DNA from: a virus
Taxonomy: Duplodnaviria > Caudoviricetes
DNA length: 53,162 nucleotides
IMG/VR virus record: IMGVR_UViG_3300024323_000009
Span: 1-53,162 of that record
Strand: one strand, 5' to 3'
In this document: one piece after another, positions 35 through 52,787 of the stretch
Numbering within the stretch: the first letter of the stretch is position 1
Layout of the letters: the number at the start of each line of letters is the position of its first letter
Position numbers and translations under genes: made by a program
Notes under the pieces: generated by a model
What the model saw: the letters and a program-made list of their open reading frames with translations, nothing else
Database searches by the model: none
Told to the model about the DNA's origin: nothing

Positions 35-63
35 AATATCGCACACTTCCCAGGGGTTGTCAA
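35..63 (-). promoter_or_regulatory. sigma70-type promoter pointing leftward, towards the - strand early arm across the genome join
   Basis: Minus strand reads TTGACA-N17-GATATT with an extended -10 TGn (TTGACAACCCCTGGGAAGTGTGCGATATT). Confidence 0.65.
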
Positions 64-140: not shown

Positions 141-156
141 AGCATTTTCCGTGCCA
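141..156 (-). promoter_or_regulatory. sigma54 (-24/-12) promoter A, leftward
   Basis: Minus strand TGGCACGGAAAATGCT: exact GG-N10-GC spacing, close to the TGGCACG-N4-TTGCW consensus. Confidence 0.8.
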
Positions 157-1984: not shown

Positions 1985-2000
1985 TGGCATAAGAAATGCT
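1985..2000 (+). promoter_or_regulatory. sigma54 promoter B, head of the packaging/structural arm
   Basis: TGGCATAAGAAATGCT with GG-N10-GC. With flanks it is a near-identical 20-mer to promoter D. Confidence 0.85.
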
Positions 2001-9655: not shown

Positions 9656-9671
9656 TGGCACGAATCTTGCT
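9656..9671 (+). promoter_or_regulatory. sigma54 promoter C, major capsid gene
   Basis: TGGCACGAATCTTGCT is a perfect match to TGGCACG-N4-TTGCW. Intergenic, 145 nt upstream of the capsid ATG. Confidence 0.92.
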
Positions 9672-24899: not shown

Positions 24900-27800
24900 A
24901 TGCCTATCAAACGTCAGTTGACAGATGAGGAATTGGCAGAGTTAGATCGTCAAGGGTATGATGTGTCACAGGTGCCGAAGGATGGAGTGACGGTATTATC
25001 GCCAGAGGAGCAGCAACAACAGGCACTCAAGGCACAAGGAGAGCAGCAGGGACAACTCGGCGCTGTCGGCGCTACTCTCAAGGGACATGCTGGTTCTCTC
25101 ATAGGTGGTGGTGCAGGGGCATTAACAGCTGGTGCAGTAGTGCCAGCTATTGCCGCATCATGGGCAGGTGGGCCGGTTACTGGCATACCGGGAACATTGC
25201 TAGGACTAGGTGCGATGGCGGCGGGTGGATTAGCTGGGTCTTATGCTGGCCAAAAAGCACAAGAGGCGATATTGCCGCAAGCGACGAATCAACAGTTACA
25301 GCAGGCAGCAGTGGCAGCACAGGCAGCGTATCCAAAGACAGCACTAGCTACTGATGTGGGTGCTGGAGCACTACTAAGTGGTGGCAGACCATCATTGACA
25401 GTTCCGAGTCTAGCAGGTAGTGGACTTAAGAAGATATTGACTCAAGGCATAGCTTCACAGTTACTCCCACAAGAAGCTAGTGCGATACGTAACGTGGTGA
25501 CTATGAACGCGGCGAATCTAGGTGTGAATGCCGGATTGCAGGCTGCGACGACTGGGAAGGTGGACCCCACTGAGCTTGCTGCGTCAGGACTAGCAGGAGT
25601 TGCGTTCTCACAACCTAACTTCCTTGGTCGAAAACTGTTGAAGTGGGAACCGCTATCACGAAGTGCCGCACCACAAGCTGAGACTCAAGCGACTCCTTAT
25701 ACTATTGAGGATGGTCAGATACAAACTGTGGAGCAACGTCAAGCGAGGCAGAAGCAGCAGGGCAACGAGGATTGGCAGCGCCAGCAACTAGAGACGCAGC
25801 AGGCGAATGAGTATTCGGCGCAACAGGCTGCACAACTAGAAGCGCAACAACAGCAACAGAGAGATGCCGCTGAGTATCGCCAAGCGAACTGGAAGTCCCT
25901 CTCTCCGGCTCAACCTGCTAATAAGGACGGGACTCCTAACTATATGGTAGGCGATCAGGGAGTGAAGAGGGCGTGGTTGAAGCGCAACTCGGAGCCGGTT
26001 CCTGATGATGCGGACGAGATTACCCGAGCATCGGTACAGGCGCGTAACAACCTCTTGAAGCAAACTCCTGTAAGTCAGATGCGCGACGAGATGTATGTGC
26101 AGGACTTGGCGACGAAAGACCCAGAGGGCTATCAGCAATATCAGCAACAGCAACAGGCTCAGATGCAACGCATCCAACAGATGCAACAAGATGTTGCTAG
26201 CCAGAATGCTAGAATAGCGAATCAGACAGAAGCGCAGAAGCAAGCGTTGGCACAACAGCAAGCGCAGGCTAAAGCGCAACAGGTGCAGGCTCAACAGCAA
26301 CTCGCGGCACGTCAGAAGCGTCACGATGATTTCGTAGCAGCATTCCAACGCGATCAACAGGCACAACGTCAGATAGAGGCGGAACAGCTTAGACAGCAGA
26401 TACTAGGGAGGGGTTTGGAGCAACGTAGCGCGGCGACTGGCACCGCCGAGATGCAAGCGAAAGCTGCGAGAGAGGCAGCATTTGCACAAGCGGAGCGAGA
26501 GGGTGAGGCTGCTAGACAGCGTGCGCTAGAGATAGAAGAGCAGCAGCGCCGAGATGAAGGGGATACACGCTATCAAGGTGTTACTCCCGGCGACAAAGAA
26601 GTATCTAGAGCTACTCCCGAACTCCTCGGAGAAGCCGCGAAACGAGCTACGACTATCGGCCAACTACAGCCAGAAGATCGCTTAACTATCCCAGAGACTG
26701 GCGGCGAGGCGAGAGGAGCGGCGAGGATAGGGGAGCGGTTGATCTTGCTATCAAGGATGGCGACGAAGGATACCGGCTATCACGAACTCCTACACCAGAC
26801 ATTGAGTGATATGGACAAGAGTGGCGATAGGTATATGATGGAACTCGCTGGGAGGATGCGCCGAGTCCATGCGGGAGAGGAGCAACTAGCGCAACAGGGT
26901 GGAGAGCAATACCAGCAGCAAGTCGAAGGTCGTAGGAATATGATGGCGAAGGCAGGCTCTACACTCAAAGATGTCTATGCTGCGTTATCGGCGCGATTGG
27001 GGACGGAGAATCCGGGCCTTTTGAGGAGGAACCTAATCGCTATCGCTAGAGGGGCGAGTGGGCCGGAGACACCATTGATAGCGAAAGCTAGTGCAGCAAT
27101 AGGCGGAAAAGGAATCATACACTATAATACTAATGATGACTTCAAACGCTACAATGAGTTAGTATCCAAAATCCGAACCGCTCAATTATCTGAAAGACCT
27201 TCTATCTGGAAAGAACTAGAAGAGATTAAGAACCGCAATGGTGGAATGCCACCACAAGGTGTTCATATTGATGGCTCTAACGGTACTAAGTATCAAGGTG
27301 TTGAACCTGAACAACAGCGTAGAGTGGCTGGAGCTAATGTTAATCGTGCTCTAGGACTACTCGGCGCTTCTATGTATGATAAGAACTATTCTCAAACTGC
27401 GGTTAAAGAGATGGTTCAGAATGCTTTTGATGCGGTTAAAGGAGTCAATGAACCAACTATTCGACTACACTTGGAAGAGAGTGGTGGAGAGACTATAGGA
27501 GTTTCTGATAATGGTCGTGGAATGACTCCAGAGATAGTGTTGACTAAGCTTCTTCCAGCATTTGAGAGCGGCAAAGAAAGCACAGAAAGTGCTGGCGGCT
27601 ATGGATTAGCGAAAGTTGCACTTTTTAGTGGTGCTGATGACTTTAGAGTAGTGACAGTTGCAGAACATCAAGGGCAGAAGTTGCAGACAGAGGTGAATGG
27701 TGATGGCAAAGCATGGCTAGACTTCGTGAATCATGGTGCTGATTTGCCACTTGACCTGAACCAACCGGGCAGACATACACTCGACAGCAAGGGTGATTTA

Positions 27801-30800
27801 GAAGTGTGGGTTAAGCCTGTGGATGCTGAGACTACTACTGGCACTAAGATGGAAATTACTCCGTCGAAGAATTACGACAAGTATGACGCTAGAAAAGTAT
27901 TCAAAAACATCGCCAAGAACGAGCCGGGAACCATCAAGTTCTTAGATGAATATGGTACAGAGATTAAGCCAGATGCGGCAGCTTTAGCACCGGCACAGCA
28001 TACAGTTATAACTAAGGGTGCAGAAGTAAAAGTTCACTATGATCCCAGTGAATCTCCAGAACGTCAATGGGGTTTTCCAGTGATGAATAATGGATTGGTT
28101 CAATTCGACTACCCTTTCTACGAAGATGTTAAACTACCTTCGATTAAAATTAACGTCAACCCTACAGTGGACGTAATGAATCCAGAGTATCCGTTCACCA
28201 ACAATCGTGATGCTTTGAAAGGTGAGTCTAGGCAAGCAGTTGAGAATATCTTGAAGAATATGTCTCAACAATATAAGCAGAAAGTGCTAGATGTATTTCA
28301 GTCTCGCATGAATGATACTACTAAAATCGAAGGCTCTCGACAGAGATTCCTCGATGTTAGTGGTAGAATGAAGCCGGAAGATGTTACTGAGATAGCCACG
28401 GATAAGAGGATACAGGACTTGAATAAAGCATTGAGTAGAGTTCATACTGCTGCATTCAAATATCTCAACCGGCGTTTTGGTGATTTCTGGTCTAATGCTA
28501 GATACAAAGGTTTTGCCAATGGTGGAGGTTTCAAAGGTGTGCGATTTGGAGTGCCAGAGAAGGGTAAGAAAGGGGAAATTTATTATGACTTACAGCACGT
28601 ATTCAATGATGGGATACAAGCATTTCGAGATGGTAAGTATGGACCAGCAGAGATGAATAAAGCGGTTGGTGAAAGTTTAGCAGGTGTAGTATTACATGAG
28701 ATTTCGCACCAGGTTTCACACTCCGAAGGTGAAGGTCATGCTATAGCAATGACTGACCTCGCTGGTCCAATGGCTGAATACATTCGTAAATCAATCCGAG
28801 CAGTAGAAAAAACATTCACACACGATAGTGATATATTAAACTTCTATGAATGGTACAGAGATAAAATTAAAAATACGGAACTCGCAGCAGATGAGGCGCG
28901 TGATTTCATTCGCCAAGGTCAACGCGGCGAACCAACAGGACAAATCTTCTCAGCAACTAATAGAGAAGCTAGCACCAGAACTAGTGAAGCAGGCGGAGAA
29001 ACCAAGTTTCAGCCAGTAGATATTGGTGATGTGTTAGAGCCACAAGAAGGACGATTAGGGAAGCAGGGCTATTACCACCTCCGCGATGAACGCCTACAAG
29101 CCTCGTCGGTTCACATTACTGACGACAAGATTCATGTCATTAACTTGCAAGTGCCACAAGAGAAACAAGGTAAAGGTATCGGCTCCGAAGTGCTCGGCAA
29201 ACTCAAAGGACTCTCCGACTCTATCGGTAAGCCTATCGAATTGATAGCACACCCCGATAGTGAAAAGCAACAGGAACAGTTGAACCGATTCTATGAGCGT
29301 AACGGATTCACAAAGCTAGAAGGCGACGATCGGAAGTTTAGCTATTTTCCACCAGCATCTAGTATGAAGTATCAACCCGTAGCTGGCCATCCTGAGGACG
29401 AATCACCAGTAGCGAAGGAGGCGTCGTTGAAGCTTACGCAATCGGCGATTGACCGCATTCGTAGTATTCCGGCGAAGATAGCACCGGAGCTAGGTGATGC
29501 GTTCCAGCAGACTCTAGCGAAGAAGCAGAACCTCCTTGGGCAGTGGTGGAACAAAGCGGCATACGCTATTAATAAGCTCTCGACTAACGAGCAGGCGACG
29601 TTACAAGATGTACTCTATAACGAGCGTGATAGTAGGCAGAAGATGTTTGTTCCACAGAAGCTGCGCGAGGCTTATGGCGCGATTCGGCAGGCATATCTCG
29701 ATAGCGCCGAACACCAACGTGCTATCAATGAACCCATCCAAGAGAGTGATGGCACTATGCGTCCTATCGAAGTGGACCCCTTCTACCATGCGACTACGAT
29801 GGAGCCGAAGGTAGCAGATGTGTTTCGGCAGGGGACGGATAAGGCTGAGGAGCAGCGGTTGACGGACATCTTTGTGCAACACCAACTCCGGCATATTGAC
29901 CCGAAGATCACTGACCCTGAGCAACGACTCGCGATTGCACATAGTAACCTCAAAGATATTATCGCGTCACTGCGCGGCTCCGCCAAGTTCGACACCGGCG
30001 ATCATAGCAACCAGACGTTCTATAATGCAGCGCGGAGAGCCGAGGGAATACTCCTTCCTAAAGAGTTCATGCGCCAAGATTTGAAGCGCAACCTACAAGT
30101 GTATTTCATGCGACGTGCAGCGGATAATGCTTATTATGAGCATATGGAGAGTCAGCCGAAGATAGCATCAGCGTTAGGTTATACTAAAGATGCGTGGGGT
30201 AACAAACTGCCGAAAGCTGACGAGTTACTATCGGGCAACGATCAAGTCCGTGCAGTAATGAACATGCTCAAGGGTGAGGGGATTACGAAGACGAGTATGC
30301 AGGAGCACGCGGTAGAGTCACTCGCGAGTGCAGTGATGCTAGGACCAACCACCGAAGGCCATAAGATAGTGGGTAGTCAAGCGATGGCGATGACCTACGC
30401 AGATAACCCAGTGGAAGCCGCGAAGATGTATCTGCACGCGATACGCAATCTTGGGAGTGGATGGGTTAATACTAAGAATGAGCCAACTGGTAGTTACGCA
30501 CACACGCTAGAGACTGGCTATCACGTCCTCGATAGTAAGTCGGCGCATGACATGCTCAATACTCACTTGACTGCTGCTGAACGACTCCGTGGGTTGACTA
30601 CTGGGATACGCGAGATTTATACTATTGGTGGGTTGACTGAACGGTTCAACAAGAGCATGTTGCAGGGGATGGCCGAATATCTCATACCCTCGAAACTAGC
30701 CGCAGCTAGGAATGGTGATGCCGGAGCTTTAGCACTAGTCCGGCATATAGACCCCTCCTTCACTCCCGACAAAGCTTATACTGACAAGCAACTCGTAGCA

Positions 30801-31847
30801 ATAGCATCCGAGTTCGCCAATCTGATGCACGGCACTAAGGATGCTAGGACATTGCCTGCGTGGATGCTACACGATAACGAAGTCTCATCATTCTTCAAGC
30901 TCGCTTCGTGGAACATCGCCCAGACTAATAACTTCATGCGTAACGTATGGACACCAGCCAAGCAGGGCAACTTCCAACCGCTGCTAATGTCCACCCTTGG
31001 CGCTGCCCTCGGAGGTTATGCCTTGACTCAGTTGCGGGAGGCAATCAATGCGAAGCGTTCCGGCGTCCCGTCCTTCGGGGAAATGGCCGCCTCGGAGCGG
31101 GGATTGTTTCAACCGGCGCTCGCATATCAGGCGATGGCGATGGCCAGCTATGCCGGATTTGGGGGGATACTCTCGACGGTCGCAAGGTGGCCATTCGACA
31201 TTGCGTTCCGAAACGCTCCACAAGGCGCGACGTTTCCACTCGACGAAGAGGTTAGCGGACTAGTGAAGGTGGGCAACAACGTAGTGGATGCGTTGTTGAA
31301 TGACCCTACTGGCAACTGGATGAACATAGGCGCTCATGGTATTGCGGACATATTGAAAAATAACATTCAACTAGCGCGAGTGGGATATAACCACATGGCC
31401 GATTTAGGAATGCTATCGCCGGAGCGTAACGAGTTGAAGGCGACTAGTGATAAGATGGCCGAGTTACGCCGGTTCAAACAGGTGAGTGGTTATACTGTTG
31501 ATTTACAGGGTGGTGCTGGTGATGAGAACCCCTATATGAACTTAGAGCAGCGTAGCTTTAAGAGGGAGCAAGATATGGGCAAAGCAATGCAGGAGTTGCC
31601 GGCGCTAGTGAACACGTTAGTTACGAAGTATGGTGATAAGCCTGACGTGATGCTATCGAAACTAAGGTCATTGAAGAGCAATAGCACTTACGAAACTATG
31701 CCCTCGTTTGAAGATACTCCATTGGTGTTCACCAGATACTTGTCCTTCTTGCAGAAACGTGAGGGTAACAATGCCGCAAATGCTAGGCTGATGGACTATA
31801 TGCAGCACAAGATTGTGAATGCGGCTAAAGCTTCGGCAGTTCCTTAA
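24900..31847 (+). CDS. Giant multidomain internal virion (polyvalent) protein: HExxH zincin-like motifs, GHKL ATPase, GNAT
   Basis: YHELLH at ~26781. GHKL motifs KEMVQNAFDA, DNGRGM, GGYGLAK and TGT. LHEISH at ~28695. GNAT motifs QGKGIGS and RFYERNGF. Confidence 0.8.
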   Translation: MPIKRQLTDEELAELDRQGYDVSQVPKDGVTVLSPEEQQQQALKAQGEQQGQLGAVGATLKGHAGSLIGGGAGALTAGAVVPAIAASWAGGPVTGIPGTLLGLGAMAAGGLAGSYAGQKAQEAILPQATNQQLQQAAVAAQAAYPKTALATDVGAGALLSGGRPSLTVPSLAGSGLKKILTQGIASQLLPQEASAIRNVVTMNAANLGVNAGLQAATTGKVDPTELAASGLAGVAFSQPNFLGRKLLKWEPLSRSAAPQAETQATPYTIEDGQIQTVEQRQARQKQQGNEDWQRQQLETQQANEYSAQQAAQLEAQQQQQRDAAEYRQANWKSLSPAQPANKDGTPNYMVGDQGVKRAWLKRNSEPVPDDADEITRASVQARNNLLKQTPVSQMRDEMYVQDLATKDPEGYQQYQQQQQAQMQRIQQMQQDVASQNARIANQTEAQKQALAQQQAQAKAQQVQAQQQLAARQKRHDDFVAAFQRDQQAQRQIEAEQLRQQILGRGLEQRSAATGTAEMQAKAAREAAFAQAEREGEAARQRALEIEEQQRRDEGDTRYQGVTPGDKEVSRATPELLGEAAKRATTIGQLQPEDRLTIPETGGEARGAARIGERLILLSRMATKDTGYHELLHQTLSDMDKSGDRYMMELAGRMRRVHAGEEQLAQQGGEQYQQQVEGRRNMMAKAGSTLKDVYAALSARLGTENPGLLRRNLIAIARGASGPETPLIAKASAAIGGKGIIHYNTNDDFKRYNELVSKIRTAQLSERPSIWKELEEIKNRNGGMPPQGVHIDGSNGTKYQGVEPEQQRRVAGANVNRALGLLGASMYDKNYSQTAVKEMVQNAFDAVKGVNEPTIRLHLEESGGETIGVSDNGRGMTPEIVLTKLLPAFESGKESTESAGGYGLAKVALFSGADDFRVVTVAEHQGQKLQTEVNGDGKAWLDFVNHGADLPLDLNQPGRHTLDSKGDLEVWVKPVDAETTTGTKMEITPSKNYDKYDARKVFKNIAKNEPGTIKFLDEYGTEIKPDAAALAPAQHTVITKGAEVKVHYDPSESPERQWGFPVMNNGLVQFDYPFYEDVKLPSIKINVNPTVDVMNPEYPFTNNRDALKGESRQAVENILKNMSQQYKQKVLDVFQSRMNDTTKIEGSRQRFLDVSGRMKPEDVTEIATDKRIQDLNKALSRVHTAAFKYLNRRFGDFWSNARYKGFANGGGFKGVRFGVPEKGKKGEIYYDLQHVFNDGIQAFRDGKYGPAEMNKAVGESLAGVVLHEISHQVSHSEGEGHAIAMTDLAGPMAEYIRKSIRAVEKTFTHDSDILNFYEWYRDKIKNTELAADEARDFIRQGQRGEPTGQIFSATNREASTRTSEAGGETKFQPVDIGDVLEPQEGRLGKQGYYHLRDERLQASSVHITDDKIHVINLQVPQEKQGKGIGSEVLGKLKGLSDSIGKPIELIAHPDSEKQQEQLNRFYERNGFTKLEGDDRKFSYFPPASSMKYQPVAGHPEDESPVAKEASLKLTQSAIDRIRSIPAKIAPELGDAFQQTLAKKQNLLGQWWNKAAYAINKLSTNEQATLQDVLYNERDSRQKMFVPQKLREAYGAIRQAYLDSAEHQRAINEPIQESDGTMRPIEVDPFYHATTMEPKVADVFRQGTDKAEEQRLTDIFVQHQLRHIDPKITDPEQRLAIAHSNLKDIIASLRGSAKFDTGDHSNQTFYNAARRAEGILLPKEFMRQDLKRNLQVYFMRRAADNAYYEHMESQPKIASALGYTKDAWGNKLPKADELLSGNDQVRAVMNMLKGEGITKTSMQEHAVESLASAVMLGPTTEGHKIVGSQAMAMTYADNPVEAAKMYLHAIRNLGSGWVNTKNEPTGSYAHTLETGYHVLDSKSAHDMLNTHLTAAERLRGLTTGIREIYTIGGLTERFNKSMLQGMAEYLIPSKLAAARNGDAGALALVRHIDPSFTPDKAYTDKQLVAIASEFANLMHGTKDARTLPAWMLHDNEVSSFFKLASWNIAQTNNFMRNVWTPAKQGNFQPLLMSTLGAALGGYALTQLREAINAKRSGVPSFGEMAASERGLFQPALAYQAMAMASYAGFGGILSTVARWPFDIAFRNAPQGATFPLDEEVSGLVKVGNNVVDALLNDPTGNWMNIGAHGIADILKNNIQLARVGYNHMADLGMLSPERNELKATSDKMAELRRFKQVSGYTVDLQGGAGDENPYMNLEQRSFKREQDMGKAMQELPALVNTLVTKYGDKPDVMLSKLRSLKSNSTYETMPSFEDTPLVFTRYLSFLQKREGNNAANARLMDYMQHKIVNAAKASAVP

Positions 31848-39525: not shown

Positions 39526-39759
39526 TCAATCTCCCTCCTTCGGTTGTAGTCCTAGCAAGCGTTGCTCTAGTCCCTGTAGCGCCGCATTCACTCCACGAAT
39601 ACTATACAGCGCACTTCTCACTGGCACTAGGTGTTCCGTTGCGTTAAGACCACGCTTATCACCATCTAGTATCACGCGAGGTAATGCTTGTAGGTGAGCT
39701 TCAGCACTCAATATGCCATCACGCGCCTTTGTTAGTAGTTGGATTTTACTCTCTGGCAT
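39526..39759 (-). CDS. Hypothetical protein
   Basis: 77-aa ORF in the operon. Confidence 0.55.
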   Translation of the reverse strand: MPESKIQLLTKARDGILSAEAHLQALPRVILDGDKRGLNATEHLVPVRSALYSIRGVNAALQGLEQRLLGLQPKEGD

Positions 39760-40538: not shown

Positions 40539-40787
40539 CTAGGTCGAACTAGGAACTGATGGAGTAAAGTTATGGATGATGCCGAGTGCAAAGCGACGGC
40601 GATGTTGGCACTCTTTGCCTTCTCGCCTAGCTCTAGCTACTGACTCACGATAAAAGTCACGGCGACTAGCTACCTTTGGAGTGAGTGTGAAGATAGCACT
40701 AGCTGGATACGCCTTTGCAGGTGGCTGAATAGTGGGGTTATACTTGTTATCCGGTTTCGCTGGTGGTTGTTCTTTAGTATCGTTCAT
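40539..40787 (-). CDS. Hypothetical protein
   Basis: 82-aa ORF overlapping the stop of the ATPase gene. Confidence 0.5.
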   Translation of the reverse strand: MNDTKEQPPAKPDNKYNPTIQPPAKAYPASAIFTLTPKVASRRDFYRESVARARREGKECQHRRRFALGIIHNFTPSVPSST

Positions 40788-41461
40788 GTTGTTTTTGGTT
40801 CACCATTATAGTAACTCTTCGCTCTTGCAATCACTGCTGCTAAATCGTTCGGCACTAGTTGGTCAGTGAACATTTCTAGTGGAGTCTTCGCTGTCGTCGA
40901 ACCGTCCGTGTTCGTCTGAAACCAATACTCCATAGCTCCGGCTTTATTGCGTCGGGGTTCAGTGAACAACACCAGTAAGAACTCCTTCTCAATCTTGCCG
41001 CGTTGTTCCTTGCCATCTACTGCCATCATTCGCTTATTCGTAGTTGAGCCATCCACATTCACTAGTTCTACTATGTCGTCTATGCTAGTGACTGCTACGG
41101 CACACTTATCATTTTTGTATTGGTTGAGAGTAGCTTGGACCATCTTCGAGTATTGTCCGTAAATCTCAAATCCCTTGTAGCACTTTTGGCATAGCTCTTT
41201 GATCTGCTCGAAACGTTTAGTGAGTGAGTCTACTACAATCAACTCTACGTTAGGTGTCTTGAGTGCGAGTTGGAACTGTGAATCATGCTCGGCAGGATTA
41301 GCAAAGGGAAGGATTCGGAACTTATTTGAGCCACGAAAGGGGAACCCCTTACGTTCGCCGTCTAGTATCACAGTTGTATCAGGATTAAGATTTCGTAGCG
41401 AGGTACTCTTCCCAGACCCCGATGGTCCTACAATCGCGATTAGTGCCTTGTGTTCGGACAT
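40784..41461 (-). CDS. AAA_24 / Sak4-like recombination ATPase
   Basis: GPSGSGKST, ILDGERKG, IVVDSLT and AKTP motifs. Confidence 0.75.
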   Translation of the reverse strand: MSEHKALIAIVGPSGSGKSTSLRNLNPDTTVILDGERKGFPFRGSNKFRILPFANPAEHDSQFQLALKTPNVELIVVDSLTKRFEQIKELCQKCYKGFEIYGQYSKMVQATLNQYKNDKCAVAVTSIDDIVELVNVDGSTTNKRMMAVDGKEQRGKIEKEFLLVLFTEPRRNKAGAMEYWFQTNTDGSTTAKTPLEMFTDQLVPNDLAAVIARAKSYYNGEPKTT

Positions 41462-41512: not shown

Positions 41513-41528
41513 AGCATTTTCTATGCCA
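41513..41528 (-). promoter_or_regulatory. sigma54 promoter D, upstream of the Sak4-like/SSB/polymerase genes
   Basis: Minus strand TGGCATAGAAAATGCT in a 71-bp intergenic gap. Confidence 0.85.
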
Positions 41529-41532
41529 ACTT

Positions 41533-41781
41533 TTAGAGCAATGCTACACGCATCGGTTTGATAGTGTCAATTCGCCGTTCAGCACGATTGAGGATGCCGA
41601 GTATTCTATCAGCTTCACGTGTGGAAAGATATGGAGTGCGACAGACGAAAGCTTTAGCGCCGCGTAACCGTAGTTTGTGCCAGTTGCGGACAGCAGCGGC
41701 GCGGGAGAGTGGTGATTGGTCGTGGCCGGGATGCTTAGGAGTGTTCATCCCGTGTGCGTATTTATAGTTGGTGTTTTTCAT
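41533..41781 (-). CDS. Basic hypothetical protein
   Basis: 82-aa ORF. Confidence 0.55.
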   Translation of the reverse strand: MKNTNYKYAHGMNTPKHPGHDQSPLSRAAAVRNWHKLRLRGAKAFVCRTPYLSTREADRILGILNRAERRIDTIKPMRVALL

Positions 41782-43648: not shown

Positions 43649-44032
43649 TTAATTGCCAAACAGGTTGTCGCGCTTCGGAGCCTCGAAGGGACTAGGAGTA
43701 GGAGTCGTCGGCTCTCCACTACTCTTTATCTCTTCCATCACTTTATCGAACATCTTCATCATCTCAACAGCGTTCTTCATACCAGCCATCGCATGTTGGA
43801 CACGTACTTCACTGATCTGTCTGAGTAACCAGTCTGCGACTACAGCTACTAATGTCCTGGTAGAGCACTTTGCTACTTCTTCCTTGATAATCTCTGTGAA
43901 CTCTTTGCGTCCTCTCTCGAAGTTCTCTACTGAGAAGCCACCCTTTATTACTTCGGCTTCAGCGAGTTTTAGACGTGGAGCGATACGATTAATTGCGCTA
44001 GCTAACTCTTTGATTTGTTGTTCTTTTGTCAT
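43649..44032 (-). CDS. Hypothetical protein
   Basis: 127-aa helical ORF. Confidence 0.6.
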   Translation of the reverse strand: MTKEQQIKELASAINRIAPRLKLAEAEVIKGGFSVENFERGRKEFTEIIKEEVAKCSTRTLVAVVADWLLRQISEVRVQHAMAGMKNAVEMMKMFDKVMEEIKSSGEPTTPTPSPFEAPKRDNLFGN

Positions 44033-44062
44033 ACTATACTATTGTGTTTGTTGTTTGTGTTG

Positions 44063-44674
44063 TTATCTCATTACTCTCACATAAGTCTGTTGTATATCTG
44101 CCTCTACTCCCTCGATACCCGCAAACAGTTGGACTAGCCACTCCTTATCGGCGTCGGAGATAGGAATGCCATTTGCGTATAGCTTCCGACTATCCCATAT
44201 CTCTTCCGACTGTGCGACTTGTAACCACTCCTGCAATGCATCTTTCCAGTTAGCTTCGGGTCTGGAAGCATCAACTACGTTAGTCACTGAGCTAGCTAGT
44301 ATCGCAGACATAGTGTTCTTGAAGTAGAGGATGATACCGATAGCTTCTCCCTCAGCGTTCCACTCTTTGCTAATACCTATTTGCTGTCTGAACTGTAAAT
44401 AGCGTCCGGGTTGTGGGTCGAACTCGCTCAACCAGCGGAGGGCGTCGTTAGCTTTGATATACAACGTGCTAGCGGAATAGCCAGAGAGTTGACAGCTAAC
44501 CTTCTTCGTCTGCCTATCTGCTATCATTCCATCAAAGATCGGCTTCCACGCAGCCGCGTTCTCAGGAGTGAACGATGGACGATGCTTCGCTATAGTCCCT
44601 TTCGGTCTGCGGGTGTTAGCTAGCACCGGCGCTGCCACACTAATCGCTTCGAGAGGGGGATTATCGTTGGGCAT
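44063..44674 (-). CDS. Hypothetical protein
   Basis: 203-aa ORF. Confidence 0.7.
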   Translation of the reverse strand: MPNDNPPLEAISVAAPVLANTRRPKGTIAKHRPSFTPENAAAWKPIFDGMIADRQTKKVSCQLSGYSASTLYIKANDALRWLSEFDPQPGRYLQFRQQIGISKEWNAEGEAIGIILYFKNTMSAILASSVTNVVDASRPEANWKDALQEWLQVAQSEEIWDSRKLYANGIPISDADKEWLVQLFAGIEGVEADIQQTYVRVMR

Positions 44675-44679
44675 AAACG

Positions 44680-44928
44680 CTATCGAGAGAGTTGGTGTTT
44701 ATTGGCATAGCAAAAATTAAAGAGTGACAACAGTAGGGCTTCATACCTTGCGACTCGGCTCAATCCCCGATATGTTGCATACTTAGTAACCATCTCTATG
44801 CTCACTAGTGAATCACTTGGCATAGATACTCTCCTGTTCTGCGGTCGCTTCGGCGTCGGGGCTAGCACGCCGGATACTGGTTCTAACAACAACCACGCGA
44901 AGGCTATTGCTGATTCCGATTTTATCAT
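44680..44928 (-). CDS. Hypothetical protein
   Basis: 82-aa ORF with weak support. Confidence 0.4.
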   Translation of the reverse strand: MIKSESAIAFAWLLLEPVSGVLAPTPKRPQNRRVSMPSDSLVSIEMVTKYATYRGLSRVARYEALLLSLFNFCYANKHQLSR

Positions 44929-45192
44929 CTACTGTTGTCACAAAATTATTCCCACAGTCCAACAACTAGGCTCTAGGTACGACTGGCAGAACTACACTAA
45001 ACGAGCCGTCACACACATTGTCAGTTAGCGATGATGCTGTGGGAGCCATCATATGTTTGAAATGTTTAGTGTAGGAAAGAGAAAGTCCTCACCACTACTC
45101 CCAACTCTACGTTGCTTTCGTGGTGAGGTTCCACAACCTTCCTCTATTGAAATTGAAGGATAACGATAGAGGCGTTGTGTTGATTGTTGCGA

Positions 45193-45774
45193 TTACGTAG
45201 TCGCAGTAGTCGCCTGTGCCGCAGCCGCAGCAGCTTCTCCCTGCGCCATTTCTGTCATTACCTTCTGCATCTTGAGCAGCAAGGCAACACCCTCTTGTAT
45301 CTTCGCCGGGTCTTTTGACTCCATCAGCTCGCGAGCTTGCTTGAACATCTGATTGGGCGAGAGTTCGCGCACGTCTGGACGCCAGCTAGCAGCTTCGTCC
45401 TGAGTGTAGAGGATGCCGTCTTTGAACTTCGCTAGTAACGTCTGTTGCAGTTGGATACCAGCAGCGACATTCTTAGTATCGAACTTTTCGGGGACGTTAT
45501 CATTCTTCACCTTCGTCCTGATACGAGCAGCGCCGACACTGGCCATCACTCCCATAATCGCTTCTTTGCCGAGCCGAGTTACCATAGTGTCGAAGTCGGA
45601 ATACACAGGAGAGTAGAACTTGAAGTTCTTGAGTGGGCCTTCGGAGATTTCGTTAAGCTCGAAGGTGATGGGAGCACCATTGGTAGCAGCGGGTGCTGCG
45701 GTAGTTGTAGTAGCAGCAGTGCCTCCACTATCTGCAACTGTGGGGTCAAGGAGGATGTTTCGATTATTATTCAT
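45193..45774 (-). CDS. Hypothetical protein with its own sigma54 promoter and a scaffold-like N-terminal motif
   Basis: 193 aa, N-terminus ILLDPTVADSGGTAATTTTAAP. Confidence 0.8.
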   Translation of the reverse strand: MNNNRNILLDPTVADSGGTAATTTTAAPAATNGAPITFELNEISEGPLKNFKFYSPVYSDFDTMVTRLGKEAIMGVMASVGAARIRTKVKNDNVPEKFDTKNVAAGIQLQQTLLAKFKDGILYTQDEAASWRPDVRELSPNQMFKQARELMESKDPAKIQEGVALLLKMQKVMTEMAQGEAAAAAAQATTATT

Positions 45775-45847
45775 ATTGCCTTTTTACTAACTGTTCTATT
45801 GTTTGGTTTAGAGGAGTAACTATTACTCCCGAATCGAGTTGAGGTTA

Positions 45848-45863
45848 AGCAGGAATCGTGCCA
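45848..45863 (-). promoter_or_regulatory. sigma54 promoter E
   Basis: Minus strand TGGCACGATTCCTGCT, intergenic, 73 nt upstream of the ATG at 45774. Confidence 0.88.
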
Positions 45864-45900
45864 ACCCCGGAGAGATAGGACGAGGATTGAGATGTAGCTA

Positions 45901-46269
45901 TTACTTTCGCTTCTTGGTTGTGGTTCCTTTCTGCTGTTTCTTATAGATAAAAGTACTCCACGCCTTCCACATCACCGCTGCTCGTTCGCCAGTATAGGTG
46001 ATGGAGTGATTCGCGGAGAGTTGGAAGATGACACACTCTTTCCAGACATCAACTAGTCGTAGTCTTATACCACGTTCTAGTTCTGTCTCGCCGGGGTAGT
46101 CTGGATGAGGATAGGCTAGCTTGTTAGGGTAAATCAACTCCCTCCTAATAGTATTGAATCCACCCGGACCTTTTAACTTGCTCTGCTGCCCATACTGGTT
46201 CACCCAATAGTGGGTGCCGTGTTGGACATGACTAAAGTTTAGTAGACTGGTGTTGTTTGGTATTTTCAT
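45901..46269 (-). CDS. Basic hypothetical protein
   Basis: 122-aa ORF. Confidence 0.6.
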   Translation of the reverse strand: MKIPNNTSLLNFSHVQHGTHYWVNQYGQQSKLKGPGGFNTIRRELIYPNKLAYPHPDYPGETELERGIRLRLVDVWKECVIFQLSANHSITYTGERAAVMWKAWSTFIYKKQQKGTTTKKRK

Positions 46270-46507
46270 TTTCTTTTCTGTAGTTTAGAATTTGGTTAAG
46301 CTCATCAATGAACATGCGACCTTTATCACACTTGGCACACAAGAAGTAATGCCGAACTTTGTTGGTAGGATTTATTCCTACAGATTCTATGGCGCTTCTT
46401 TCAACTTCGTATCCATTTAGTTCGCGTTTAGCATCTACCAAATCTTGTTCCACTTCACTAGTCGGTATGTGATTAACTTTGTTTATCTGTTCTACTGTTA
46501 GTGTCAT
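46232..46507 (-). CDS. Hypothetical protein
   Basis: 91-aa ORF with a 4-nt overlap onto the activator stop. Confidence 0.55.
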   Translation of the reverse strand: MTLTVEQINKVNHIPTSEVEQDLVDAKRELNGYEVERSAIESVGINPTNKVRHYFLCAKCDKGRMFIDELNQILNYRKENENTKQHQSTKL

Positions 46508-47376
46508 TGTATATCCTCCACCGTTATCGCCTCTACCCCTAACACTTCGATGCGGAGCGCAAGGTTAAGGAGTTGCCGCACATTACCCGGCAACACTTTT
46601 TCTGGCGGGACAGTCTTAACTAGCTCTAGTATTCTAGTATAAGCAACACTATTAACTAGTAGTTTGCAGTCATCCATTTTCTCGCGGAGAGGCTTCACTT
46701 TCAATTCAAATACTGATAGCCTCTGATACAAGTCTAGTCTAAAAGTAGGAGGGTCTAACTTAGACATGGCTTTCAAGTCTTTATGTGTTGCAGCCACAAT
46801 GCGACACAATAATTGTTCATCCGTATTACCACCAACCTTGCGAAAGGTTCTATTGTTAATTGTGCGTAATAGCTTTACTTGCAAATCGGCAGGCATATCA
46901 CCTACCTCGTCTAGAAAAAGTGTGCCTCCTTCGGCTTGTTTGATAAGGCCATTACGTTCTCTCTCTGCTCCTGTGAAAGCACCTCTAGTATGGCCGAATA
47001 GTTCACTCTCGAATAATAGTGGACTGACAGCACACACATTGACGCCGACTAGTTGACCTCTACGTTCTCCATGTAGTATGTTAGCGAGCAGTTCTTTACC
47101 TACTCCACTGTCGCCTAAGATAAGAACAGGCTCTTCTCTAGGGGCTAGTTTAATAGTTTGCTCCTTCACTTTGATAGTGTCAGCGTCGTTAGTCTTGAAC
47201 GCTCTCGCTGCCTTCCACGCTGCTATTCGCCAAGGGTTGATGATGCCGGAGGCTACTGCGCCGGACATGAGAGCTACACTAGGTGACTTCTCCTTCTCTA
47301 GTAGTGTGGCCCATATCTCGGCTTGTTGCTCAATAGTGAGTTCGCTAGTGGAGGGTGCTATTTTTTGTTCACTCAT
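46504..47376 (-). CDS. sigma54-dependent transcriptional activator (bEBP AAA+ core, no HTH, no REC)
   Basis: GDSGVGKE, ESELFGHTRGAFTGA, LFLDEVGD, QVKLLR, RIVAATH, FRLDLYQRL and PGNVRQL. The protein ends about 20 aa after the last motif. Confidence 0.95.
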   Translation of the reverse strand: MSEQKIAPSTSELTIEQQAEIWATLLEKEKSPSVALMSGAVASGIINPWRIAAWKAARAFKTNDADTIKVKEQTIKLAPREEPVLILGDSGVGKELLANILHGERRGQLVGVNVCAVSPLLFESELFGHTRGAFTGAERERNGLIKQAEGGTLFLDEVGDMPADLQVKLLRTINNRTFRKVGGNTDEQLLCRIVAATHKDLKAMSKLDPPTFRLDLYQRLSVFELKVKPLREKMDDCKLLVNSVAYTRILELVKTVPPEKVLPGNVRQLLNLALRIEVLGVEAITVEDIQ

Positions 47377-47377
47377 A

Positions 47378-47578
47378 TTAGTATCTCGCTTGCATCTTAA
47401 CGTGTTCCATTGCTGTTGCTTCTATCATGTCGAGGCCGGACTTGACGGTGCGGCAGTAGGTCATCCAGTATTCCGGCTCCTTCTCCATAGGATGCAACAC
47501 TAACAGTTCGTTAATAATTGCATCTACTCTTGTTGCATCTCTGTATGCTTCTGCTCTTTTTGTCAGTATTGATTTCAT
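47378..47578 (-). CDS. Small hypothetical protein
   Basis: 66-aa ORF directly upstream of the activator. Confidence 0.55.
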   Translation of the reverse strand: MKSILTKRAEAYRDATRVDAIINELLVLHPMEKEPEYWMTYCRTVKSGLDMIEATAMEHVKMQARY

Positions 47579-47609
47579 TCTATGTTGTTCTTTCTCTTGT
47601 TACTACTAA

Positions 47610-48518
47610 CTAAGCCTGTATCACATCCGTCGTCGCCCACTCCCGTAGGAGTCGCCGGAACTCGGCTAGCATCCTAGTGGGGTCATCTTGGTTCAATGAC
47701 GAAATCCAGATGGGGTTGAGGTTGGAGTCGAAAGGTAGGGTTACGGTGGAATGGGATAGCATGATAGGTATGCCATAACAACCATAGTTTTCAAATCCTA
47801 GTTGTTTACGCTCTTCTGTAGGATACATTTCTTCTATAACAAGACCTAGTCTTCGACACATATAAGAAGAGCATAATGCTATGGCTAACTTGTTAGTGTC
47901 GAATAACTCTCCAAACTCCTTCACCTTAATATATGTAACACACCTCATACCACTACCTTCACATGGTGATACTGTATAGACTTCTGTTGAATATCCACAT
48001 TGTTCCATATGCTCTATCATCAGATAGGTATAAGCTCCGCGATAGAAGAATGCGTTTTCGTCCATGTCTGAGTTATTACGAATGTTACAATAGATACTCT
48101 GCACCTTATTGCCTCGCTTCGTATCTCCACCATCTATCGGCACTTGTTCCGCGATAAACGTCTCCGGCGTCGCACCACTTAGATGCGCGGCAACGTCTAT
48201 CACTCCACCCGCTATCTGATGACGTAGCTCCGGCTTATACTCTGTAACTGGCATCACACAGTCGAATAGGTCTGGGGGTAGTGTGCGTTGTAGCTCGCGT
48301 ATCTTAGCGATACCTACTGGCCAGCCGTCGTGACAATAACGCAGAGCTTGTTGTAGAGAAGCGCCGGCCCAATCGTCATACTCGGAGTATAGTGACAAGT
48401 AGCTACGTGGCTCCGTTCGCTCTCCGTGTTCCACTTGATCTACGAACTCCGACCATGAGTGGAATATATGGGTATATTGTGAGGGAGTGGAGTAGTGTTG
48501 GCCTTTCATATCGGACAC
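47610..48518 (-). CDS. VWA/CobT-like partner of the AAA+ ATPase
   Basis: GGVIDVAAHLSGATPE motif and an alpha/beta C-terminal half. Overlaps the AAA+ gene stop. Confidence 0.55.
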   Translation of the reverse strand: MSDMKGQHYSTPSQYTHIFHSWSEFVDQVEHGERTEPRSYLSLYSEYDDWAGASLQQALRYCHDGWPVGIAKIRELQRTLPPDLFDCVMPVTEYKPELRHQIAGGVIDVAAHLSGATPETFIAEQVPIDGGDTKRGNKVQSIYCNIRNNSDMDENAFFYRGAYTYLMIEHMEQCGYSTEVYTVSPCEGSGMRCVTYIKVKEFGELFDTNKLAIALCSSYMCRRLGLVIEEMYPTEERKQLGFENYGCYGIPIMLSHSTVTLPFDSNLNPIWISSLNQDDPTRMLAEFRRLLREWATTDVIQA

Positions 48519-50344
48519 TCTCCTATCTCTTTTAACTTACTGCCTTCGCTTATTACTAGTCCAGTATCTTCGCTGTCGTGACTCGGCTCCTGATTCCCCA
48601 CATCCTTATGCTTCTTCCACACATGCGGCGCTTTCACCCTATCCACTTCTTCCTTCTTCAACCCCTTATACACGCTCTTCTGTAAGCATTTGTTCACACT
48701 CCACTTCTGGTTGCAGATGAGCATCTTAGCGACGTTGATGATGTTGCGGGTGGAGATAATGATACGTATGTTCTGCTTCTCGGCGTTGACTCGCATAGCA
48801 GAGAACATATCTAGTAGTGTTCGCATGTGTTCTAGCTTCCAACCACCCGCATCTTTGTAGCTCATATACAACCGTTGTAAGAGTGCCCACTCGAACGCTT
48901 CGTCATAGTTCCACTCTTGGAACTGGAACTCGTTGAGTAACGCTGCGTCTTGAGCACACCTACCTACATATTCGCGTGTAGCTCCGGTGCCCCACGTATT
49001 CATAGTAGCGATCACTACTACTTGCGGATTCACTTCCTGCATACCATAGGGCATCATTATCCTTCCGGTGTTTAGCGCCTTGAGTATCATAATGACGTTC
49101 TCGTTAGCATTGTCCATCTCGTCTACTATTATCATAGCGGGAGTGGAGAAGTGAGTAGTGGGTATCTTACCGCCATTACTGTTGTCGTAAACCTGACCTA
49201 GTATCGCATCTGTCCATGCTCCTTTACGATAGTGGCCACCAGCATCCATGAACCCAATGAGATCATGGGGTGCTATGATACGAGTCATTTGCTTGATACA
49301 CACGAGTTGTCGTGGTATCTTGAGTGCGTCGGCACACTGGAAAGCGCCGAGCGTCTTTCCGCCTCCTGATGGTCCCACTGCTGCACACCAACAACCACTT
49401 TGGACTATACCGATAACTTCGGGAACACTAGCATGAACAGCATCGGGTAGTTCAGTGATAGTTGGTGGAGTGGAGCGCCGGTCTTCGATGATTAGCCGAG
49501 AGGCTTGTAGTGTGTCTAGCTTAGCTTTGAGTGTGTCCTCTATCTCCTTCTTAACACTCTCTAGGCTATCACTTAGTTCCGCACGCAACTCTCCGGCGGA
49601 GGGTATCTTCTCCTTCACTTGCGCTAGGACTCTATCTACTAAATCCTTACACATTAGTTCGTATGGGTCGTTCATATTTCTAGTTTGTGGTTCATCTTTG
49701 TGTTGTTCTTTCGGCTTTGTATCCTTTCCGGTTTGTCTCCTAAGCCATCGTTCGGCTTCTTCTAGATAGTTCTCTCGTATTTGGAGTGGTTCTGGGTTAG
49801 CAGTTTCATACTCCAAACTAGCATGTAGAACTTCCTTTCTGCCGTTTGCTTTGAAGCAGATAGTATCATTTGAATATTGACAGCCACCATTCCAACCATA
49901 GAAAACAGCTAAGTCTTGGAGTTTGAAGAATGTATCCTTATCCACTCCAAGAAAGGCCACTCCAGTAGTATTGTATTTGTCTTCAATCTTATCCTCGTCT
50001 ATCCATAATCCTCCAACAGAAGGCATATCTTTAGTCTTCTCTTTAGTAGTTGGTTGTGGTTGTTCTCCTTTTCCATCCGTTATCCACTTGATAAACTCGG
50101 CGCAGTGATTGCTATAGACTGTAGTACGATTAACGTCATAAGTTGTATCATCAGCACTATGATTTATTACTAAACTACTACTATAAACTATAATGCTTTT
50201 GTGTGGTGACTCGTAAAGTTTTTGTCCATAATACCAGCAATAGCCGTATCTAAACGCTAATAGCTGCAACTCCCTACTAGTCTCCACTGTCAATCCGCGA
50301 GCTACGAAGTCGGTGGAGGGCATAACTACTCCTTTACTCGCCAA
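48506..50344 (-). CDS. MoxR/CobS-like AAA+ ATPase with a long N-terminal extension
   Basis: VGPSGGGKT, IIVDEMDN and ATMNTWGTG...YVGR..QDAALL motifs. Confidence 0.8.
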   Translation of the reverse strand: MASKGVVMPSTDFVARGLTVETSRELQLLAFRYGYCWYYGQKLYESPHKSIIVYSSSLVINHSADDTTYDVNRTTVYSNHCAEFIKWITDGKGEQPQPTTKEKTKDMPSVGGLWIDEDKIEDKYNTTGVAFLGVDKDTFFKLQDLAVFYGWNGGCQYSNDTICFKANGRKEVLHASLEYETANPEPLQIRENYLEEAERWLRRQTGKDTKPKEQHKDEPQTRNMNDPYELMCKDLVDRVLAQVKEKIPSAGELRAELSDSLESVKKEIEDTLKAKLDTLQASRLIIEDRRSTPPTITELPDAVHASVPEVIGIVQSGCWCAAVGPSGGGKTLGAFQCADALKIPRQLVCIKQMTRIIAPHDLIGFMDAGGHYRKGAWTDAILGQVYDNSNGGKIPTTHFSTPAMIIVDEMDNANENVIMILKALNTGRIMMPYGMQEVNPQVVVIATMNTWGTGATREYVGRCAQDAALLNEFQFQEWNYDEAFEWALLQRLYMSYKDAGGWKLEHMRTLLDMFSAMRVNAEKQNIRIIISTRNIINVAKMLICNQKWSVNKCLQKSVYKGLKKEEVDRVKAPHVWKKHKDVGNQEPSHDSEDTGLVISEGSKLKEIGECPI

Positions 50345-50511
50345 GGTTCTAGTGCTGCTTCAATGCGATCAGCTAACGATAAGCTGACATTGTATAGTTT
50401 AGCTCGTTCGATTGTAATAGCTGGTAGAGCATCCCTTGCTTCTAGCAATAGTTTAGCTTGCTCTATCACTATCTTCTCTAACTCTTCATGTGTTAAGTCT
50501 GCTATTTTCAT
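50326..50511 (-). CDS. Small hypothetical protein
   Basis: 61-aa ORF. Confidence 0.55.
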   Translation of the reverse strand: MKIADLTHEELEKIVIEQAKLLLEARDALPAITIERAKLYNVSLSLADRIEAALEPWRVKE

Positions 50512-52367: not shown

Positions 52368-52787
52368 CTAACCTACTTTCTGTTGCTGTTGCATCTGCCA
52401 CATCGCCTCAATCGTAGCTTGTGGCAATCCTTTAACCATCTGTGTTGCTAGTAGGGGATTGATACCCTGATTGCAGAAACCAGCTACTACTGCATCCGCT
52501 TTACTCTGCCAAGCAGCTTGTAGCTCCGCAATACGCTCGTTAATAGCGCGGCGTTTGTTTTGGGAGCTATCCCAGTCGCGCTTGTGCCATAGCCTATATA
52601 GGCCAGCGTTTAATTGTGGCAATAGTGAGCCATCACTAGAGACAGCTTCCGAGCTATTCTCTATCTCGCACACTTGCCGATAGTCGGGATGCTCCCGCAC
52701 TATCCGTTCGCGGTCTAGCTCGTTTATAGTGGCCCAGTCACGGTGACGGACTACTAGGTCGAGATACTCAGTTAGTGTTAGTGTCAT
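52368..52787 (-). CDS. Hypothetical early protein
   Basis: 139-aa ORF. Confidence 0.65.
   Translation of the reverse strand: MTLTLTEYLDLVVRHRDWATINELDRERIVREHPDYRQVCEIENSSEAVSSDGSLLPQLNAGLYRLWHKRDWDSSQNKRRAINERIAELQAAWQSKADAVVAGFCNQGINPLLATQMVKGLPQATIEAMWQMQQQQKVG

Follow-up and report, generated by a model that had tools for sequence, protein, structure and literature searches.

Can a phage switch on its own genes by making an activator of the sigma-54 RNA polymerase of its host? This question is raised by an open reading frame (ORF) on the − strand of the virus record IMGVR_UViG_3300024323_000009, the whole of which (53,162 bp; referred to below as the window) was analysed. The record is complete (CheckV completeness 100 %) and represents an uncultured tailed phage of about 53 kb, belonging to the Caudoviricetes. 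The ORF in question, at positions 46504–47376, encodes a protein of 290 amino acids (aa). A sequence-only reading had proposed that this protein is a minimal member of the bacterial enhancer-binding proteins (bEBPs), the activators of sigma-54 RNA polymerase, and that the phage thereby possesses an activator of its own, with neither an input domain nor a helix–turn–helix (HTH) domain, for sigma-54 promoters of its own. That proposal is supported by the co-occurrence of the gene and the promoter-like sites in related phages, and by the conservation of the positions of those sites. Judged from these comparative data, the phage probably makes this protein as a working activator by which the host sigma-54 polymerase is brought to transcribe from the phage's own promoters.

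Among the known means by which phages time the expression of their genes are an RNA polymerase of their own, a sigma factor of their own and a remodelled sigma-70. The T4 proteins gp55/gp33 and MotA/AsiA, SPO1 gp28 and the phiEco32 sigma factor are phage factors that redirect the host core polymerase to middle or late promoters. Provision of an activator for an unchanged alternative sigma factor would differ from all of these, and the evidence for such an arrangement is presented in the following sections.

Domain content, motifs and fold of the activator

Forty-one of the window's ORFs, a part of the total, were scanned with Pfam and/or PHROGs. The activator was matched by the Pfam family Sigma54_activat (PF00158) over residues 64–225, with an E value of 6.1e-52 and a score of 176 bits, compared with a cut-off of 20.2; its remaining Pfam matches were to general AAA+ families only. 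It was also matched, at 8.9e-38, by PHROG 7998, a family whose function is not annotated. No second Sigma54_activat gene was found in the window. All of the conserved bEBP motifs that the sequence-only reading had listed are present, each having been read in the translation at the residues given in Table 1. The GAFTGA motif lies within ESELFGHTRGAFTGA, and sensor I is represented by AAT at residues 195–197. In an alignment of 24 family members, no variation is seen in the Walker A and Walker B residues, in the two glycines and the threonine of GAFTGA, in the arginine fingers or in the asparagine of sensor II, and GSFTGA and GSYTGS occur as variants of the loop.

An AlphaFold2 model of the activator, calculated with the alignment of the 24 family members, had a predicted local distance difference test score (pLDDT) of 91.8 and a predicted template modelling score (pTM) of 0.87. 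In Foldseek comparisons the model matched the AAA+ domains of FleQ, PspF, NtrC1, NtrC4, FlrC, ZraR and DmpR with E values of 1e-20 to 1e-17, the structures of PspF 1–275 being matched at approximately 1e-18. Nearest among the solved structures are those of the FleQ and FlrA central domains (PDB 5exp, 6j7e and 8p53, among others; E value 4e-49), with root-mean-square deviations (rmsd) of 2.1–2.2 Å over approximately 238 columns. For the FleQ central domain, the rmsd was 2.1 Å over 238 columns, the template modelling (TM) score by target was 0.78 and the identity was about 42 %. As modelled, the activator has the clade-6 AAA+ fold of the solved bEBP central domains, and it is presumed to be active as an ATPase and to assemble into a ring.

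The chain stops 11 residues past the alignment with the FleQ AAA+ construct, just beyond the sensor II helix. Searches with hidden Markov models (HMMs) for sigma, HTH and receiver families were performed in six frames over the whole window, and no match was obtained in any frame for HTH_8, Response_reg, Sigma54_DBD, Sigma70_r2 or Sigma70_r4; in the activator itself, HTH_8 and Response_reg were not matched even at E values up to 1. The HMM outcome anticipated in the sequence-only reading was thus obtained, as was agreement with its description of a protein with no C-terminal Fis-type HTH domain and an N-terminus that is neither a receiver nor a GAF domain (three helices in the model), encoded by a phage with no recognisable sigma factor. 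The last of these points follows from the empty sigma-domain searches of all frames. The same reading had asked whether a frameshifted HTH might be situated downstream of the gene, and the six-frame HTH_8 search revealed none. Because neither HTH_8 nor Response_reg was found in any frame, the gene is, at the sensitivity of HMMs, no frameshifted host regulator. With no regulatory N-terminal domain, no DNA-binding domain and Pfam matches to AAA+ families only, the protein has the domain-less architecture described for FleT.

Most of the relatives encoded on viral contigs are shorter still, at 241–257 aa, which leaves no room for any added domain; a single short basic helix precedes their AAA+ core. 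Because most relatives keep only the last helix of the N-terminal extension, the three-helix form is a trait of the sub-lineage to which the window belongs and not of the family. Look-alikes of this extension were weak, with Atlas feature scores no higher than 0.89 and structural TM scores no higher than 0.52 (FecR N-domain, HTH_DeoR, ScpB and HTH_11).

A search of 5.8 billion proteins yielded about 21 short proteins (256–336 aa, 48–58 % identity) containing the sigma-54 interaction domain only, several of which are encoded on contigs of approximately 50 kb. Ranked below these were cellular regulators, 41–49 % identical over 67–84 % of the query, that carry PAS, receiver, FleQ and HTH_8 domains. 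In a FastTree phylogeny of 91 rows, the family formed one set with a Shimodaira–Hasegawa (SH)-like support of 95; that set comprises long forms, the short forms of the viral loci and two short proteins provisionally labelled as cellular. With the phage activator, a known enzyme family gains a new branch that is viral and has an architecture known previously from one cellular protein. One family protein (P0012) occurs on a contig of 251,723 bp, and a scan of genome contigs with P0012 returned solely cellular bEBPs, matched via the universal FESEIFGH pattern. When the region from 44000 to 50400 was compared by megablast with a cultured-phage collection, no match was found. A tblastn search of the phage collection matched 65 records, all at less than 60 % identity and with a maximum of 43 % among the 40 matches listed; many of these records bear cellular-regulator annotations or the names of bacterial organisms.

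Sigma-54-type sites in the window

Sigma-54 promoters conform to the consensus TGGCAC-N5-TTGCW, in which GG and GC doublets are placed 10 bp apart. Exact matches to TGGCAY-N6-TGCT were found six times in the window, compared with an expectation of 0.26, and a count of six was not reached in any of 100 shuffles that preserved dinucleotides. All six have the 10-bp spacing of the doublets, and five are intergenic and co-directional with the ORFs that they face (Table 1). Relatives contributed 45 distinct sites, the consensus of which, TGGCAcGa.TCtTGCT and then tTata, we take to be a near-perfect sigma-54 promoter. The sites are predicted to be sigma-54 (−24/−12) promoters, and transcription from them would on this basis begin approximately 12 nt downstream and depend on RpoN.

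Among the products of the genes behind the − strand sites are a PD-(D/E)XK exonuclease, a Sak4-like annealing protein, a DNA polymerase and a primase-helicase. The site at 141–156, which faces the left end of the record, heads the − strand arm that includes the activator gene if the ends join or if a terminal repeat is present. In the related genome G002, the equivalent site lies 78 bp ahead of the homologue of ORF 52368–52787, on contiguous DNA.

Conservation of the sites and the activator in relatives

Relatives were found in two ways, through the activator and through the capsid-like protein. Among the viral loci found with the activator, 45 of 55 have a strict sigma-54-type site that shares the strand of the activator gene and lies between it and the homologue of ORF 45193–45774. 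In 43 of these 45 the site lies 2–45 bp past the activator stop codon. The ORF 45193 homologue itself was identified in 44 of the 45 loci, the distance from the end of the element to its ATG being 62–85 nt (73 nt in the window). Long (310–778 aa), non-syntenic activators are encoded in precisely the ten loci that lack a site.

These ten viral-collection contigs (L044, L045, L048–L050 and L052–L056) are worth describing in their own right. Their activators have other N-terminal regions, no strict sigma-54 site is situated nearby, and no synteny with the present phage family was observed. The contigs may come from unrelated viruses, or from cells if the viral collection includes cellular DNA.

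Five relatives (G001–G005) were available as whole records, and together these contain 18 sites, compared with three for a reversed-pattern control. All five have a site that follows the homologue of ORF 8367 and precedes the capsid gene, and four of the five have one directly after the activator and before the ORF 45193 homologue; in G002 the activator is located 2 kb upstream. A site ahead of the homologue of ORF 3352–4959 was placed in G001 and G002 only (loci L069, L070 and L073), and the equivalence of the virion-arm sites of G003–G005 is based on strand and spacing alone, loci L062, L063 and L066 having no protein match. Three sites, those of the recombination operon, the head of the virion arm and the capsid gene, hold their positions in relatives whose proteins are 40–60 % identical.

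The second approach gave concordant results. In all 37 viral loci found with the capsid protein, a GG-N10-GC element was observed 124–258 nt upstream of the capsid alignment; 26 of these elements are strict sites and 11 have TGGCAG. Eleven near-complete genomes (G006–G016) were chosen by capsid homology only, none of them having been found via the activator, and every one contains exactly one Sigma54_activat ORF, of 240–323 aa. Together these genomes contain 58 strict sites, compared with one for the control, and two of the 11 have direct terminal repeats. The sequence-only reading had asked whether related phages carry both the gene and −24/−12 sites; the 45 activator loci and the 11 capsid-chosen genomes do, and no relative with the promoters that lacks the activator was encountered among 16 near-complete or partial genomes.

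Table 1. Coordinates of the activator gene, its motifs and other features of the window. Residue numbers are those of the encoded protein. Sites are given by predicted class.
Feature	Position	Strand	Remarks
Minimal sigma-54 activator (bEBP) gene, 290 aa	46504..47376	−	Open ORF, ATG start; three-helix N-terminal extension followed by AAA+ domain
N-terminal extension, residues 1–62, three helices	47191..47376	−	Helices 15–27, 32–42 and 48–59 (AlphaFold2 model); not in most relatives
Walker A, GDSGVGKE, residues 88–95	47092..47115	−	G88, G91, G93, K94 and E95 invariant in 24 family members
GAFTGA L1 loop, residues 132–137	46966..46983	−	Sigma-54 contact motif; G132, T135 and G136 invariant, F134 nearly so
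Walker B, LFLDE, residues 153–157	46906..46920	−	D156 and E157 invariant (24 members)
Arginine-finger region, FRLDLYQRL, residues 212–220	46717..46743	−	F212, R213, D215, L216 and R219 invariant
Sensor II, PGNVRQL, residues 263–269	46570..46590	−	G264 and N265 invariant, R267 nearly so (24 members)
Sigma-54-type site TGGCACGATTCCTGCT	45848..45863	−	73 nt upstream of the ATG of ORF 45193–45774; heads the recombination/replication run
Sigma-54-type site TGGCATAGAAAATGCT	41513..41528	−	Ahead of the Sak4-like gene 40784–41461
Sigma-54-type site TGGCACGAATCTTGCT	9656..9671	+	146 nt ahead of the capsid-like gene 9817–11097
Sigma-54-type site TGGCATAAGAAATGCT	1985..2000	+	Head of the + strand packaging/virion arm
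Sigma-54-type site TGGCACGGAAAATGCT	141..156	−	Faces the left end of the record
Sixth exact match TGGCATATTGAGTGCT	39703..39718	−	Status uncertain; within the start of a 77-aa ORF
Best sigma-70-like match, TTGACA-17-(TG)GATATT	35..63	−	Candidate early promoter of the − strand arm; 10/12 positions, consensus only
First gene behind the conserved site, 193 aa	45193..45774	−	Synteny and alignment A2; family core approximately 135 aa
Capsid-like protein gene, 426 aa	9817..11097	+	Atlas look-alikes: Uroviricota clusters with Phage_capsid_4 and Phage_capsid_3, TM 0.59/0.75

Proposed mechanism and enhancer independence

The following mechanism is proposed. The activator would be made early from the − strand arm, where its gene is accompanied by helicase and AAA_5 genes, probably by means of sigma-70-type promoters. 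The protein would form a ring which, by means of ATP and its GAFTGA loops, would open the closed complexes of the host sigma-54 RNA polymerase at the −24/−12 promoters of the phage. The targets would lie at 45863 (recombination/replication operon), 41528 (Sak4-like gene), 1985 (virion arm) and 9656 (capsid gene), so that the later genes of the phage are probably expressed through the host sigma-54 machinery. The ring would act from solution or by docking directly on the closed complex, and not from remote enhancers. The site at 156, ahead of the activator's own arm, might provide positive feedback. Since the protein has neither an input domain nor a recognisable DNA-binding domain, it would presumably be constitutive, its timing would be set by its accumulation and it would act without remote enhancers.

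Three observations point to enhancer independence: the lack of a DNA-binding domain, the existence of family proteins of as few as 241 aa, and promoters that start 2 bp after the activator stop codon. Where only 2–45 bp separate that stop codon from the promoter, no room is left between the genes for an enhancer. Upstream regions of five window sites were also compared. No 8-mer, allowing up to one mismatch, is common to four of the five and no 7-mer to all five; those shared by three of the five are common words only, and a weak AGCNAC near −33 in three of the five sites is not convincing. No shared upstream motif was apparent by eye in the promoter pairs of G006–G016. On balance, enhancer independence seems somewhat favoured.

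Points against the mechanism, and alternative explanations

Several points weigh against the mechanism proposed above. In G002 (L158–L160), the 9-mer GCTGTCACA is present in four copies in 51.7 kb, three of which precede sites by exactly 34 bp, and the fourth of which follows another site by 42 bp. In G001 (L155–L157), AGCCAC is situated at −32 in three of four sites. The motif TAGAAGAY is found at −16 in all three sites of G003 (L161–L163) and in two of three sites of G004 (L164–L166), and additional copies, on both strands, cluster in the divergent control region of G003 (30.5–31.8 kb). Because these motifs have fixed offsets, a DNA-bound factor or contact may participate in the G001–G004 lineages. 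In view of the weak HTH, winged-helix and FecR N-domain look-alikes of the modelled three-helix N-terminus, a DNA- or protein-binding role for it is conceivable. The expression of early genes via sigma-70 is hinted at by one match of 10 of 12 positions, and sigma-70-like matches on the − strand arm are not enriched (21, compared with 19 expected). The phage might conceivably also encode a cryptic RNA polymerase, and the presence of rpoN in the host is assumed. Lastly, FleT, the sole described bEBP of this architecture, is believed to operate with FleQ as a partner, according to the accessible part of one account (PMC10084136).

Some of these points can be combined in an alternative, namely that the phage protein is a partner subunit, acting with a host bEBP as FleT is thought to act with FleQ, or a motor positioned by a DNA-bound factor or by its own N-terminal helices, activation being in either case site-directed. 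Such an explanation, the foremost of the alternatives, which we regard as unlikely while granting it some weight, is favoured by the behaviour ascribed to FleT, by the nature of the nearest solved relatives (central domains of FleQ and FlrA, about 42 % identical), by the lineage motifs at −34, −32 and −16 in some relatives and by the HTH-like look-alikes of the N-terminus. It is opposed by the fact that the N-terminal domain is missing in most family members, by the failure to find a common upstream motif in the window or, by eye, in G006–G016, and by promoters that often begin only 2 bp after the activator stop. Two AAA+ domains lacking an HTH, PspF 1–275 and truncated DctD, reportedly activate from solution, which also counts against a need for a partner or docking site. 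The motifs at 16 and 34 bp upstream have a place in a much broader proposal, that the whole phage family runs essentially its entire post-early programme (recombination/replication, packaging and capsid genes) through host sigma-54, with the bare AAA+ protein and its −24/−12 promoters constituting a travelling cassette and, through the promoter ahead of the activator's own arm, an autocatalytic, irreversible switch; in some lineages the motifs would then be docking sites that place the ring at the promoter, unlike looping enhancers. In that sweeping form the proposal is unlikely.

Activation of the phage's own promoters has also to be weighed against effects on the host. Without a DNA-binding domain, the activator should not tell phage from host sigma-54 promoters, and a promiscuous, constitutive bEBP has been described, in the available excerpt of the source, as firing a whole regulon (PMC3844500). 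The protein might, therefore, serve mainly to reprogram the host by switching on its entire sigma-54 regulon, with nitrogen, motility and stress genes; promoters of the phage would then be secondary or served by host activators. This appears improbable in view of the tight, family-wide linkage of the gene to position-conserved promoters of core phage genes; because of that linkage, the phage promoters are better seen as the selected targets and host effects as a possible by-product. A still more sceptical explanation would treat the gene as a recent, non-functional fragment of a host regulator, which it resembles in being, as it were, an excised central domain, and the −24/−12 matches as products of chance. 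The short proteins form a distinct clade on phage-sized contigs, however, their catalytic residues are invariant, the family shows neither relaxed selection nor disrupted motifs, no shuffle attained the observed number of sites, and the sites keep their positions at 40–60 % protein identity. It would be most surprising if the fragment explanation were correct.

Comparison with known systems

The phage activator was compared with bEBPs that also lack one or more of the usual domains. According to the accessible text of a 2020 review (PMC7175178), FleT is the only known bEBP without both regulatory and DNA-binding domains. The FleT protein of Rhodobacter (Cereibacter) sphaeroides, to which the phage protein is likened by description, similarly consists of the central AAA+ domain only. 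It is, however, a cellular flagellar regulator, believed to assemble together with FleQ into hetero-oligomers in the part of the account available (PMC10084136), whereas the phage protein is phage-encoded, is linked to promoters in its own genome and falls in a separate clade of the tree. PspF, HrpR and HrpS resemble the phage protein in having no input domain and an intrinsically active AAA+ domain, and PspF has the same fold. They differ, in the accessible portions of two reviews, in having a C-terminal HTH and in being restrained by PspA or HrpV (PMC7175178, PMC10084136); for the phage activator neither an HTH nor an inhibitor was identified.

FlgR of Helicobacter and CtcC of Chlamydia are described in the available section of one review (PMC7175178) as receiver-containing activators without a DNA-binding domain. 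Their receiver is controlled by phosphorylation, in contrast to the phage, where no Response_reg match was found anywhere in the window. FleQ, one of the closest solved relatives, carries a FleQ domain at its N-terminus and an HTH at its C-terminus, in addition to binding cyclic di-GMP and FleN, and none of these features was seen in the phage activator.

Among phages, Pseudomonas phage YuA has been reported to rely on sigma-70 as well as sigma-54, with one mapped sigma-54-like promoter, P015; the accessible part of that account mentions no phage-encoded activator (PMC10914365). The Htm protein (Gp204) of an E. coli phage is an early AAA+ protein that resembles bEBPs and reprograms host genes (bioRxiv 10.64898/2026.10.06.757011). 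It has no GAFTGA loop, and DD replaces the DE of Walker B, whereas the phage activator has the full set of sigma-54-contact and catalytic residues and is encoded among sigma-54-type promoters of the phage. In the T4, SPO1 and phiEco32 systems a new sigma factor or a remodelled sigma-70 is employed; here, by contrast, the host's alternative sigma would be left unchanged and only the unlocking ATPase supplied. The sequence-only reading knew of no phage described as working in this way. A full-text literature search, with most subscription journals outside its reach, agrees, having returned no account of a phage that encodes a GAFTGA activator and has promoters to match. Comparative genomics supports the view that the system would represent a new form of the takeover of host transcription by phages.

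If this interpretation is correct, the supply of nothing more than the ATPase that unlocks host sigma-54 would constitute a further, and economical, takeover strategy. Because sigma-54 promoters are silent without an activator, one small protein could act as a tight off-to-on switch for many operons. The domain-less bEBP architecture would go from a single case, FleT, to a large natural family, and that family would supply compact, input-free activators together with matched promoters. Host rpoN would become a predictable determinant of host range or resistance for these phages.

Candidate early promoters and host signals

The best sigma-70-like match (63..35, − strand) heads the activator arm if the ends join or a terminal repeat is present. 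A scan of the G002 control region for sigma-70-like matches gave four, compared with 3.3 expected. In the window, the sequence TTGACA-18-TAGCAT at 41570..41541 (− strand) is directly upstream of the sigma-54-type site at 41513–41528, an arrangement suggestive of tandem promoters of two classes. The pairing of 141–156 with 35–63 has the reverse order.

No match to T7-type RNA polymerase (PF00940) was found in the window, though the control for that search likewise matched nowhere, and the 2315-aa ORF described below has no DxDxD RNA-polymerase motif. The window contains no tRNA genes. A loose Shine–Dalgarno match precedes just 10 of 39 window genes, and TAGT or TAAT stands ahead of many starts. 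The scarcity of Shine–Dalgarno matches gave rise to the idea of a Bacteroidota host, which gained no support: TTTG-N17-21-TANNTTTG had no matches, TANNTTTG alone occurred 28 times, compared with 27.5 expected, and the −7 promoter motif of the Bacteroidota type is not enriched.

Genes neighbouring the sites and the activator

ORF 45193–45774, the first gene behind the conserved site, had no Pfam or PHROG match, and its AlphaFold2 model was poor (pLDDT 64, pTM 0.34). In the alignment of its family (A2), which has no known relatives, W131, P133 and R136 are invariant; the copy in the window has an additional Thr/Ala-rich N-terminal segment of 45 residues and an Ala/Thr-rich tail. The capsid-like protein (9817–11097) also lacks Pfam and PHROG matches, the virion genes of this phage going unrecognised by HMM libraries, and its assignment is based on the presence of Phage_capsid_4 and Phage_capsid_3 in its Atlas look-alikes.

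Directly upstream of the activator, at 47610–50344 (− strand), are genes for a CobS-like AAA_5 protein (612 aa; PHROG 249, 'porphyrin biosynthesis') and a DUF7192 protein (302 aa). Because a tblastn search of the related loci revealed no homologue of either, these two genes appear to be specific to this phage. Between the activator and its downstream site, at 45901–46507 (− strand), are ORFs of 91 and 122 aa with no family matches, of which only the latter has a homologue, in G001. The last gene product of the virion arm (24900–31847, + strand) is a 2315-aa protein with a GHKL-type ATPase match (HATPase_c_3, residues 832–932) and a weak GNAT match (1406–1471). It looks like a multi-enzyme virion protein, possibly one that is injected.

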